This document shows, piece after piece, positions 5,534-8,857 of a stretch of DNA of 64,000 nucleotides (the stretch's first letter is position 1; each line of letters begins with the position of its first letter). The notes under the pieces are model-generated. The model had not been told where the DNA came from and searched no databases. It saw only the letters and a list, made by a program, of their open reading frames with translations. The position numbers and the translations under genes were made by a program. The DNA comes from an uncultured Eubacteriales bacterium (GTDB taxonomy: Bacteria > Bacillota > Clostridia > Oscillospirales > CAG-272): contig URAP01000007.1 in NCBI GenBank assembly GCA_900545935.1, positions 4,463 to 68,462 of the forward strand, given 5' to 3'.

Positions 5534-8500
5534 ATGAGCAAAAAATTCACATCATTGCTTCTCGTCTCTTCAATGCTCTTAGGTACGTTCCTTCTCGGAT
5601 CGTGCGGTAAAGACGGCGCAGACGGTCGTGCAGGTACGGACGGTAAGGACGGCAAATCCGCCTATGAGCTTGCGGTCGAGAACGGCTACAAGGGCAGCGA
5701 GACGGAGTGGCTTGCATCGCTTGTCGGCGAGGTCGGAGAAAGCGGAAAATCCGCCTATGAGCTGGCAGTGGAGAATGGGTATAAGGGCGATGTCAAATCG
5801 TGGCTCGCTTCACTTATAGGTGTTAACGGCACCAACGGTACAAACGGAAAATCCGCTTATGAGCTTGCAGTCGCTCACGGCTATAAGGGCAGCGAGACCG
5901 ACTGGCTCGCATCGCTCGTCGGCACTTCCGCAGCCGCTGCCGCAGGGCGTGACGGTATAAACGGCAGATCTGCCTACGAGCTCGCTTGCGACAACGGCTA
6001 TGTCGGCACTCTTGCGCAGTGGCTTGGGTCGCTCGTCGGCGCAGACGGTAAAGACGGCGCAGACGGCAAGGATGGTATTGACGGCAAGGATGGTATTGAC
6101 GGCAAGGATGGTGTCGACGGTAAAGACGGCATTGACGGCGTAAACGGAAAGTCTGCATATCAGCTTGCCTGCGATAACGGATATACAGGTACAGAGGCTG
6201 AGTGGCTTGCATCCCTTGTCGGTGAAGCCGGAGCGGTCGGCGCTCAGGGCGAAAAAGGCGACAAGGGTGATAAGGGCGACACCGGGGCAATCGGTGCCGA
6301 CGGAAAGTCCGCATATGAGCTTGCTCTCTCTTCCGGCTTTGACGGTTCGCTGCAGGATTGGCTCGCATCTCTTGTAGGAAAACAGGGTGAAAAGGGCGAG
6401 ACCGGCGCACAGGGCGAAAAGGGCGAGACCGGTGCGCAGGGCGAAAAGGGTGAGACCGGAGCACAAGGCGAGAAGGGCGAGACCGGTTCGCAGGGTGAAA
6501 AAGGCGATACCGGCGCTGACGGAAAGTCCGCTTACGAGCTTGCTTGCGAGCAGGGCTACACCGGAACCCTCATCGAATGGCTGACATCGCTTGTCGGCGC
6601 TAAGGGTGACACCGGTGCCGACGGTGCACAGGGTGAAAAAGGCGACAAGGGCGAAAAAGGCGACAAGGGTGAAAAAGGCGACAAGGGCGATAACGGAGCA
6701 CAGGGTGAAAAAGGCGATACAGGTGCGACGGGAAGGTCGGCATATGAATCAGCTGTAGCTAAGGGCTATACCGGAACGGAGGACGAGTGGCTTGCTTCGC
6801 TCGTCGGCAGAGACGGCAAGGACGGTGCTGACGGCAGGGACGGCAGATCGGCATATGAGATAGCTGTTGCAAACGGCTTCTTCGGCACCGAGGCTGAGTG
6901 GCTTGAGTCACTGAGAGCAACATCGGGAGACGGTAACGGCAAGTCTGCCTACGAGATAGCAAAGGATCACGGCTTTGTCGGCACCGCCGTCGAATGGCTC
7001 GATTCGCTCAGGGGCGCGAACGGTGCGAGCGGCAAGTCCGCATATGAGATAGCATGCGATAACGGCTTTACGGGAACAGAGGCGGAATGGCTCGCATCTC
7101 TCGTAGGCGAGGTCGGCGGCTACGGTGCGGACGGAAAGTCGGCATACGAGCTTGCGCAGGATCTCGGCTTTACGGGAACGCTCTCCGAGTGGCTGACATC
7201 GCTTATCGGAGCGAAGGGTGAGCGCGGAGACGACGGCGCAGACGGCGCGAACGGAAAATCCGCATATGAGCTTGCCGTCGAAAACGGCTTTGTCGGTACT
7301 CTTCCCGAGTGGCTTGCGTCGCTTGTCGGCGCACAGGGCGCGGCAGGCGTAGGCGGTGAGAACGGAAAATCTGCCTATGAGCTTGCAAAGCAGGAGGGAT
7401 ATACCGGAACACTTCAGCAGTGGCTTGCATCGCTTGTCGGCGCTGCGGGCTCGGCAGGCAAGGACGGAAAATCGGCATACGAAATAGCTTGTGATCGCGG
7501 CTACACAGGCACCGAGGAGCAGTGGCTCGCGTCGCTTGCCGGCAGAACAGGTAAGTCGGCATATGAACTCGCCTGCGACCGCGGTTATACAGGTACTCTT
7601 GTCGAGTGGCTTGCATCACTTGTCGGAGAAAAAGGCGATAGCGGCGCGAACGGAAAGTCGGCATACGAGCTTGCGTGCGAGCAGGGCTACACCGGCAGCA
7701 TCACCGATTGGCTGCACAGCCTCACGGGTGCAAACGGCGCTGACGGCTCGAACGGAAAATCGGCATACGAGCTTGCATGTGAGCAGGGCTTTACCGGCTC
7801 GCTGTCCGAGTGGCTGACCGCGCTTGTAGGACCTCAGGGTAAAAAAGGCGACACCGGCGCATCTGCATATGACCTTGCCGTGGCAGGCGGCTACGAGGGA
7901 ACGGTTCAGGATTGGCTGACTACCCTTGTCGGCGCTAAGGGCGAGCGTGGAGATAAGGGAGCCGACGGTACGAACGGTAAAGACGGCACAAACGGCAGAG
8001 ACGGCAAGTCTGCATATGAGCTTGCGGTCGAGGGCGGCTATGAGGGCACGCTTCAGGATTGGCTTGCATCGCTTGTCGGACCAAAGGGAGATAAAGGCGA
8101 TAAAGGCGACAAGGGTGAACAGGGCGAACGCGGTACACCGGGCGCGAAGGGCGATTCCGGCATCGGTGTTTCAAATGCATATGTGAACGATGCGGGACAT
8201 CTTATCCTTGTAATGTCCGACGGCTCGACTATCGACGCAGGTGCTGTGTCGGATACTACTCCCGTAATTCCAAAAACCTATACAGTAACCTTCAAGGACT
8301 GGAACGGCACGACTCTGAAAACCGAGACGGTAGCTGAGGGTAAGAGTGCGACAGCACCCACTGCACCTACGCGCGGCGGATATGTTTTTGCCGGCTGGGA
8401 TAAGGCGTTTGATAATATTAGGTCTGATATTGTTATTACCGCAACCTATACGGAAATTACGGGAGCGTATTTGAGCTGTGATGCTCAGTTGGTTGACAAA

Positions 8501-8857
8501 GACGCATCAATTACGATTCCCGTCAGACTGCTCAACTGCAAGGAACCCGTAAAATCATTCGGTATCTCGATTGTTGATGATTCCGGAAGCTTTACCGTGA
8601 CAAAGGGCACATGGTCTTCTGATTTTGATTATGAAATATCAAACTTTAACAAAACGCGCCTGCAGGGTGTTGCTACCTTGACGGAGCAAACCTCGGTAAG
8701 CGGCGAAATCTTCAATATAACATTAAAGCCTCTCAGTACTGCCGTATCGGGGACGCATACGATCACAGTTAATCTCAAGGTTACATATTTTGATGCAAAC
8801 GAGGATGAGATAACGATTCCCTGTCAATCGGTGACGATACCGATAACGATAAAATAA
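5534..8857 (+). CDS. giant repetitive lipoprotein: 20 'SAYELA..G(Y/F).G....WL.SL.G' modules alternating with collagen-like G-X-Y runs, then a Flg_new repeat and a cohesin-like C-terminal module
   Basis: Signal peptide with a lipobox (FLLGSC). GGAGG RBS. Gly-X-Y runs such as GEKGETGAQ x4. The C-terminus has [12 protein letters not shown]...GYVFAGWD (Listeria-Bacteroides repeat), followed by a beta-sandwich-like module ([24 protein letters not shown]...). Confidence 0.85.

Follow-up and report, generated by a model that had tools for sequence, protein, structure and literature searches.

A candidate phase-variable collagen-like stalk with a cohesin tip, and its dockerin-type partner, in gut Clostridia

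Phage tail fibres, bacterial collagen-like proteins, anchoring scaffoldins and DNA inversion switches are the described systems that come closest to a locus found in 64,000 nt of DNA from an uncultured Eubacteriales bacterium (contig URAP01000007.1 of assembly GCA_900545935.1, positions 4,463–68,462; this whole stretch is called the window here). The locus centers on the stalk gene, an open reading frame (ORF) at positions 5534–8857 on the plus strand, whose 1107-aa product carries a lipobox signal peptide, 20 short modules separated by Gly-X-Y runs, and a cohesin module at its C-terminus. The features that best explain this gene are an upstream recombinase gene with a candidate invertible promoter and a downstream gene for a dockerin partner. 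We lean, if only slightly, towards reading the whole as a phase-variable, lipid-anchored and probably trimeric stalk that serves as an anchoring scaffoldin for a co-transcribed, dockerin-bearing adhesin. An earlier note on the stalk gene hinted at a switch only in the words "locked ON", and mentioned neither the recombinase and its pair of inverted repeats nor the dockerin partner, which lie outside that gene. The note did regard the architecture as one without a match among described families, and this holds: the literature searched, Pfam and NCBIfam yielded no description of the cassette, of the protein family or of its module.

Among bacterial collagen-like proteins, Scl1/Scl2, BclA and Lcl have surface-anchored, hydroxyproline-free, charged Gly-X-Y regions, a non-collagen trimerization domain and a polymorphic collagen length, all of which the stalk protein has or is predicted to have. 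The trimerization domain of Scl2 is a helical bundle. Scl proteins have an LPXTG anchor, a single N-terminal V domain and one continuous collagen region, whereas the stalk protein lacks LPXTG, has a lipobox, is interspersed with 20 mini-domains and bears a cohesin at its tip. Its scores against the NCBIfam models NF038329 and NF038330 (Scl1/Scl2) are 156.3 bits for a cut-off of 325 and 106.8 for a cut-off of 400, so far under the cut-offs that it is not an Scl member. EPclA and EPclB, collagen-like proteins of E. coli O157 prophages, have been shown to be trimeric, and in EPclB a globular knot (the Pf2 repeat) lies between two collagen domains and appears in electron microscopy as a bead between stalks (PMC3368898). 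This collagen-knot-collagen arrangement is the nearest described design (PMC3368898). It differs in that the Pf2 knot (PF03406) is without a match in the stalk protein, in having one knot and not 20, and in belonging to a prophage-encoded tail-fibre protein.

Anchoring scaffoldins such as SdbA, OlpB and ScaE are cell-anchored proteins with a cohesin that receives a dockerin protein; for the stalk protein the same role is predicted from sequence. It is set apart by a predicted lipid anchor, although SLH-anchored homologues of the stalk exist as well, and by a collagen/tail-fibre spacer in place of Ser/Thr/Pro-rich linkers or X modules. Its cargo would be a BspA-LRR protein and not enzymes, and its expression lies behind a candidate DNA inversion switch. 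Such switches are known from fimS with FimB-FimE in E. coli and from cwpV with RecV in C. difficile, both strongly OFF-biased; the cwpV switch works via a terminator, not a promoter. These two systems and the gut invertons (Jiang et al.; PMC11892184) resemble the present locus in the adjacent tyrosine recombinase and the short inverted repeats, in the segment of ~200–300 bp just 5' of a surface-structure operon, and in a population that is mostly OFF.

The stalk gene begins with an ATG that has a GGAGG 6 nt 5' of it. The signal peptide, read from the sequence at positions 5534–5605 (plus strand), has the lipobox LGS/C and matches the pattern [LVI][ASTVIG][GAS]C at L-G-S-C24. The stalk proper follows (aa 25–878, positions 5606–8167, plus strand); Pfam Collagen, PHROG tail-fibre families and an AlphaFold 2 (AF2) model characterize it as an array in which 20 "SAYE" modules of helix-loop-helix type take turns with Gly-X-Y runs. 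A regular expression, SAY[EQD].A, finds exactly 20 modules. Alignment of these gives a consensus of the type KSAYELA..GYxG....WLxSLxG with a length of ~25 aa, in which S, A, Y, A, G, G, W, L and L are invariant within the module proper and mean column identity is 70%. A chance origin is excluded by 20 in-register copies of a 25-aa motif. The count of 20 modules of ~25 aa, the lipobox and the Gly-X-Y separators were all part of the earlier note and are borne out.

The inter-module Gly-X-Y runs are 2–17 triplets long, with eight runs of at least six triplets. The longest had been put at about 16 triplets, one fewer than found, and the shortest at about two, which stands; the unit GEKGETGAQ, given as fourfold, is present as three exact copies and one GSQ variant. 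About 133 triplets lie outside the modules in the whole stalk, with only four prolines. The protein scores 108.7 bits (1.2e-31) against Pfam Collagen (PF01391; gathering threshold 27.2 bits), and with this match and its eight runs of 6–17 triplets it has the uninterrupted Gly-X-Y length of bacterial collagen-like proteins. The Gly-X-Y register reaches each module unbroken (G-K-S, then AYE...) and restarts immediately behind it (...SLV, then G-x-x-G). Tandem DNA repeats of 9–54 nt underlie the long runs.

The module is common to phage tail fibres, as the earlier note had it. Over 50 PHROG families are matched by the stalk protein; among the top matches many are tail fibre or tail protein families, and the tail-fibre families have E values from 1e-151 down to 4e-201. 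A tblastn search detects module arrays in 402 phage records that are mostly annotated as tail fibre, so that both PHROG families and phage genomes show the repeat module in virion tail-fibre proteins. These phages are not those of Firmicutes in particular, as had been proposed: they are mainly phages of Escherichia, Pseudomonas (jumbo phages), Mycobacterium and Staphylococcus, with Ralstonia also represented, and hosts include Gram-negatives. The tail fibre of Pseudomonas phage Psa21 is 33% identical across 78% of the stalk query, and other arrays are found in Salmonella phage SPLA10 and Ralstonia phage RSF1; uncharacterized tail fibres like that of Psa21 are the closest relatives of the stalk in sequence. 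A module profile of 32 columns, built from the 20 modules, was searched at E ≤ 1e-3 against 1.84 billion 50%-identity clusters, and 22,240 cluster representatives carry the module. The expectation of one or a few copies per protein does not hold; arrays of 10–39 modules are common, with up to 39 in one protein and 21–25 in several.

A decayed prophage tail-fibre gene with no cellular role would account for these tail-fibre matches. The known fibres (Psa21, SPLA10 and RSF1) share with the stalk protein the multi-copy SAYE...WL.SL.G module alternating with Gly-X-Y. Unlike it, they have no signal peptide or lipobox, and they have virion-attachment N-termini, receptor-binding C-termini and phage neighbours. 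The stalk protein instead combines a lipobox with a tip made of InlB-repeat and cohesin, and its gene has a chromosomal context. Where a tail-fibre gene would lie in a phage or prophage structural module and lack an export signal, this gene has a lipoprotein signal peptide and a fixed chromosomal locus in a window that is not phage. No phage genes are present anywhere in the 64 kb, which agrees with the earlier statement that none flank the gene; the window flanks carry genes for oxaloacetate decarboxylase, ABC transporters and the shikimate pathway. The Flg_new and cohesin part of the protein has no PHROG match. The ORF is intact with all 20 modules kept, it occupies the same chromosomal place in 34 same-species contigs, and the cassette is conserved over many species. 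A prophage remnant is accordingly rejected as hardly credible, being effectively refuted by context, signal peptide, non-phage tip and conservation. Since tail-fibre PHROGs match the stalk while none match the Flg_new and cohesin tip, the protein is, as judged from these sequence matches, a mosaic in which a stalk of phage type is joined to a tip of cellular type.

No Pfam family dedicated to the module was found with the stalk protein as query, and sequence searches with four modules and with the 20-row module profile detect it in no PDB chain. In these searches the module maps to no well-characterized domain. Weak PDB sequence matches are to designed helical repeats (toroids) and ankyrins, or have E > 1. 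Five consecutive modules were modelled as an AF2 monomer with a 9-row alignment; the model has low confidence (pLDDT 48, pTM 0.28) and was therefore used for secondary structure only. In all modules it consistently predicts two short helices, SAYELAV and xxEWLASL, with a GYxG loop between them. The conserved A-Y...A, F/Y and W-L..L pattern would fit a small, aromatic-cored helical hairpin.

These observations may also be read as a monomeric repeat adhesin, in which the modules form a helical-repeat solenoid or beads, the Gly-X-Y runs are flexible spacers, and the protein itself binds a ligand. The junctions favour such a reading, being of 2–4 triplets in 11 of 19 cases and of fewer than six in 12 of 19, with a period of 28–40 aa in modules 9–19; so do the two helices per module, the weak matches to helical-repeat toroids and ankyrins, and the precomputed Ank_2 hits that some homologues carry. 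On the other side, the AF2 monomer gives no confident packing between modules (pTM 0.28), the Gly-X-Y register runs up to and straight on from every module, the eight runs of 6–17 triplets score strongly as collagen, and the module has its home in phage tail fibres, which are trimers. We regard the monomeric adhesin as unlikely, though it keeps an appreciable share of the probability. A trimeric fibre, laid out like a phage tail fibre, is plausible by analogy. In it the Gly-X-Y runs would form collagen-type triple helices, and each module would join with those of the two sister chains in a small helical knot that nucleates and registers the flanking triple helices. Trimeric knots would explain junctions of only 2–5 triplets, which are too short to be stable alone. 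With ~400 collagen residues at 0.286 nm per residue and 20 knots, the extended stalk would measure ~100–150 nm.

Directly behind the last Gly-X-Y run is a three-stranded beta unit (positions 8168–8254, plus strand) that is conserved in the family, as seen in alignment and AF2 models. In the family alignment (A1) positions H14, L15, G22, D26 and G28 are invariant; AF2 gives the three strands with pLDDT ~90, and there is one weak match, to a PHROG of unknown function. An InlB-type B-repeat (Flg_new/List_Bact_rpt, positions 8273–8455, plus strand) comes next. It matches Pfam Flg_new at aa 916–958 (7.2e-10) and the PDB InlB B-repeat with an E value of 6e-5. The protein ends in a cohesin module (aa 975–1105, positions 8456–8848, plus strand), detected by Pfam Cohesin and by AF2 with Foldseek. 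The Pfam Cohesin score is 20.5 bits in the whole stalk protein and 27.3 bits with the domain scored alone (gathering threshold 24.1). In the AF2 model of the last 232 residues (pLDDT 86.6) the beta unit and the B-repeat precede a beta-sandwich. The 24 best-ranked Foldseek PDB matches of this sandwich are all cohesins, with an E value of 2e-7 and TM-scores of 0.64–0.71 on the target, and most of them were solved in complex with a dockerin; the fold matches include cohesins of R. flavefaciens, A. cellulolyticus and C. acetobutylicum. The stalk protein thus carries, by sequence and by predicted fold, a cohesin module as anchoring scaffoldins do, and the array ends in a Flg_new repeat and a cohesin-like module as the earlier note described.

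The partner gene begins 17 nt 3' of the stalk gene (positions 8874–13439, plus strand) and encodes a secreted protein of 1521 aa. Its domain order is a cohesin (aa 37–167), a dockerin-like duplicated Ca-loop (aa 169–237), Cys-rich motifs, Flg_new repeats, a Ser/Thr-rich part, BspA-type LRR_5 and Flg_new. Pfam gives 1e-23 for Flg_new, 1.1e-15 for LRR_5 and 31.5 bits for Cohesin. Partner orthologues in most other species have a canonical dockerin, with GDVNGDGxINxKD twice and precomputed Dockerin_1 hits. Given the Ca-loop duplication, these canonical orthologues and the synteny, we count the partner as dockerin-bearing, as the partners of anchoring scaffoldins are. Among stalk genes that end in a cohesin, 19 of 24 have a large protein with cohesin and dockerin encoded directly 3', which is the case for neither of the two stalk genes that lack a cohesin. 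A protein with cohesin, dockerin and LRR_5 is also encoded directly 3' of the stalk gene in the contexts of P0006 and P0055. BspA-type LRR proteins form a class that is generally linked to adhesion. In the proposed mechanism the stalk protein would be exported and lipid-anchored at Cys24, and its cohesin would take up the dockerin of the partner. The adhesin-like BspA-LRR partner would then be displayed far outside the wall.

Upstream of the stalk gene is a tyrosine recombinase, a candidate invertase of 279 aa from the ATG at 4240 (positions 4240–5079, plus strand; a GTG at 4195 is also open). It has a Pfam Phage_integrase domain (3.7e-22) and a SAM-like N-domain, and in NCBIfam it is Xer-like and under every equivalog cut-off. 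Two 25-nt inverted repeats lie between this gene and the stalk gene: the left recombination site IRL, ACAACATAAT-ATTG-ATTATGATGTT, at positions 5244–5268, and the right recombination site IRR, AACAACATAAT-CAAT-ATTATGTTGT, at positions 5485–5509, 25 nt 5' of the ATG. IRL and IRR are 96% complementary and enclose 216 bp, and the recombinase gene is 165 nt upstream. Each arm is a complete site, with half-sites ACATAAT and ATTATGT around an asymmetric center, and the central tetranucleotide, ATTG in IRL, is replaced in IRR by its reverse complement CAAT. In the 64 kb, where 0.08 occurrences would be expected, the motif ACATAATNNNNATTATG is confined to IRL and IRR. Inverted repeats around a short segment beside a recombinase gene are the arrangement of an inverton.

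The only good promoter of the locus, by consensus match, lies inside the segment on the minus strand and faces away from the stalk gene, which is the OFF orientation. It is a sigma-70-like promoter, TTTACA-17-TG-n-TATACT (positions 5313–5341), matching 10/12 consensus positions with an extended -10. Because IRR ends 25 nt before the stalk ATG, there is no room for another promoter. After inversion the -10 would end ~94 nt 5' of the stalk ATG, and the predicted inverted junction reads ...GGCGATATCATCAAATTCAAAC-[site]-TATTAAATCGAAGCGG. At positions 5174–5189, in the gap that separates the recombinase stop from IRL, a consensus scan also finds a minus-strand terminator-like hairpin with a T-run, which on this evidence would halt OFF-state transcripts before they enter the recombinase gene in antisense. 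The recombinase would flip the 216-bp segment so that the promoter drives both genes; the present orientation would be OFF.

A recombinase homologue is found directly upstream and on the same strand in 10 other species. All 10 of these loci have inverted repeat pairs, 185–273 bp apart, with the half-sites ACATAAT/ATTATGT. Over the 11 loci the central tetranucleotide differs in every species, yet each time it is exactly reverse-complementary between the arms. This mirrored co-variation is expected of the substrates of tyrosine-recombinase inversion and is the strongest argument for a real switch. In 11 of 11 loci the best promoter, again by consensus match, keeps its relative position and lies on the outward strand.

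Several points weigh against the phase-variable scaffoldin. None of the 34 same-species contigs shows the inverted state, nor does any of the 10 loci from other species, which is a weak negative because consensus assemblies cannot show a minority orientation. The contigs were collected through the recombinase and its variants (10 + 10 + 7) and by a metagenome scan with a 30-mer of the gene start (6); short contigs end inside the repetitive stalk gene, not at the switch. The Dockerin_1 match of the partner in the window is 18.8 bits (E 0.0019), under the Pfam threshold of 22.9 bits. The partner has a cohesin of its own, and its dockerin might bind that one, the cohesin of another copy, or one in cis. 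The stalk and partner cohesins are 23% identical in the window, and in a comparison of 15 loci they form two paralogous lineages with some within-genome convergence (L034 and L035), which does not decide which cohesin is the dockerin receptor. The module is absent from every solved structure searched by sequence, and the five-module AF2 monomer yields no packing information. It is also assumed that the protein is lipidated and that a trimeric fibre can get across the wall.

The lack of an opposite orientation in 44 loci or contigs, together with a promoter known from its consensus match only, is what would be seen if the inverted repeats were fixed regulatory palindromes or the sites of another reaction, with expression controlled otherwise. 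Such an arrangement would not call for each arm to be a full site, or for asymmetric 4-nt centers that differ and are nevertheless mirrored in 11 species, as inversion requires. It also leaves aside that the recombinase is always adjacent and that another promoter has no space. Switches with a strong OFF bias are known from cwpV and fimS. In addition, the minor orientation has a frequency of <1% in 1011 of 1837 gut invertons (PMC11892184). We give this alternative a rather small chance, and continue with an inversion switch as the preferred explanation. In the same study, a Clostridia inverton group (139) is linked to a tyrosine recombinase group (35) (PMC11892184). The site ACATAAT-N4-ATTATGT is absent from the literature searched and from the PMC11892184 supplements as far as these were covered, and identity with inverton group 139 is not established.

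The cassette is present in many gut Clostridia, with a tyrosine recombinase, an invertible-type segment of ~220 bp with an outward promoter, a stalk gene, and a gene for a protein of ~1500 aa with cohesin, dockerin and BspA-LRR. A protein search returns thousands of stalk relatives. Many of these have Collagen, Flg_new and Cohesin and match a lipobox-like pattern, which is permissive when used on homologues, so that some of the matches are doubtful. Other stalk homologues have SLH domains or a plain signal or transmembrane anchor, and others again lack a signal peptide and begin with an N-terminus of phage-like kind. In a search of one genome per species, 565 stretches are related to the C-terminal query, many of them matching its Flg_new part only. 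The metagenome-assembled genomes (MAGs) concerned are labelled mainly as Oscillospiraceae, Faecousia, Acutalibacteraceae, Ruminococcus, Roseburia, Agathobacter and Lachnospiraceae, and isolate names point to samples from the gut of ruminants, other animals and humans. Among the species-representative loci the nearest lies in a MAG labelled Clostridium sp. NALB_7961_35, where the C-terminus is 62% identical. A survey of copy number in related genomes, as the earlier note had suggested, gives 2–25 modules among module-carrying loci with the same C-terminus. The note had implied that a lipid-anchored array of 20 modules is unique; this is not supported, as relatives in other gut Clostridia have such arrays too.

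The bacterium is a common one in the human gut. Within the species, the exact 279-aa recombinase is found on 137 contigs, mostly from gut metagenome assemblies and with a human-gut origin stated in some contig titles; an exact-protein lookup of the stalk protein returned no match. In the ten contigs first examined the locus has the same position, after the oad operon and with a nucleotidyltransferase gene on the other side. Exactly 20 modules are present in nine of ten translated same-species contigs, the tenth (L094) being broken by frameshifts. Stalk alleles range from 1055 to 1171 aa (L087–L096, L104–L113). The differences among translated alleles are confined to four Gly-X-Y runs, those after modules 3, 4, 6 and 7, and in L096 one run has grown from 17 to 108 residues. 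Strains differ in stalk length as Gly-X-Y tandem repeats are gained or lost, with the number of modules fixed at 20.

Length hypervariability at the strain level fits an arms race, and CwpV of C. difficile, whose phase variation is under the control of a tyrosine recombinase, is a surface protein with anti-phage activity. By this analogy, and with a module common to phage fibres, the stalk might be a phage-defence layer or decoy that mimics tail-fibre material or shields receptors, with adhesion not its main task; this would be compatible with the structural model. Defence genes are absent from the context, however, and the conserved partner is of the adhesion-linked BspA-type LRR class; we give a role in phage defence a low probability. 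The phase-variable scaffoldin that displays an adhesin remains the preferred reading.

A broader proposal, which we put forward tentatively and which may well go too far, is that of an unrecognized class of Gram-positive appendage with a wide distribution among the Oscillospirales and Lachnospirales of the gut. Such an appendage would be a tail-fibre-derived collagen-like trimer of ~100 nm with a lipid, SLH or transmembrane anchor, would present a BspA-type adhesin via cohesin-dockerin, and would be ON in a small subpopulation. The SAYE module would act in it as a minimal trimerization "staple" that lets very short collagen segments fold. If the model of a switched stalk and its partner holds, gut Clostridia that are abundant but little studied possess an adhesive appendage of long range that can be switched, is neither pilus nor flagellum, and reuses the design of phage tail fibres together with the cellulosomal cohesin-dockerin joint. 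It would bear on attachment to mucus, food particles and cells, and on the evasion of IgA or phages by switching off. The 25-aa module may be a compact registration or trimerization element that is useful for the design of collagen-like materials. The ACATAAT-N4-ATTATGT site and its dedicated recombinase make the switch directly testable.

Pfam searches with the whole stalk protein also list Toxin-JAB1, DUF5454, DUF5329 and DUF2934. In these cases the matches overlap the module or no single domain passes, and they were dismissed as indications of function and treated as module-like stretches inside those models. For Toxin-JAB1 (PF15659) the N-terminal 35 positions of the model match the SAYE module, with 37.8 bits against a gathering score of 21 and no single domain that passes. 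The Toxin-JAB1 model may contain a module-like stretch, and could mislabel module proteins as toxins.

Two giant proteins, P0121 (2782 aa) and P0122 (2627 aa), carry 39 and 23 modules; behind these lie C-terminal regions of very large size that are non-repeat or Ig-like, and the C-terminal end of P0122 resembles a Gram-negative repeat adhesin. From these architectures the module array serves as a stalk in other giant surface proteins too. SLH domains (PF00395) occur in several homologues with stalk, Flg_new and cohesin; the set with alternative anchors comprises P0008, P0010, P0023, P0025, P0031, P0042, P0045 and P0062. The closest species-representative relative (L007, positions 7427–10702, 19 modules) has an uncleaved-looking transmembrane or signal anchor, not a lipobox.

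Directly behind the dockerin, the partners of the window (positions 9585–9900, aa ~238–340) and of L007–L046 have one or two conserved Cys-rich motifs, C-x-H-x7-10-A-x-C-T-x2-G-N-x2-YW-x-C-x2-C-x2-YF-x-D. They have a zinc-ribbon-like look and no Pfam family, with only a faint RYYR-CCHC match. In L034 and L035 the stalk cohesin is closer to the partner cohesin of the same genome (50–52% identity) than to the stalk cohesins of other species, a pattern of sequence identity that hints at within-genome convergence or gene conversion of both cohesins. In L094 (contig_9556, positions 7296–12840) the stalk and partner genes are both split into several short ORFs, either through frameshifts from assembly error or in a decayed allele.

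Loci L004–L006 (P0055 family, from Hadza and other gut metagenomes) encode a protein of ~1100 aa with only 2 modules and a very long collagen region. An extra protein of 184 aa, consisting of a cohesin only, is encoded between stalk and partner, and upstream on the opposite strand are a helix-turn-helix regulator and two integrase-family genes. The full cassette is also present in Ruminococcus sp. zg-924 (L035, NZ_WNJZ01000026.1), a genome not labelled as a MAG and a possible experimental handle. Besides the recombinase it has the inverted repeat pair ACATAAT-TCTG-ATTATGT / ACATAAT-CAGA-ATTATGT; its stalk protein is 1258 aa long and contains 2 modules, and its dockerin partner has 1558 aa.

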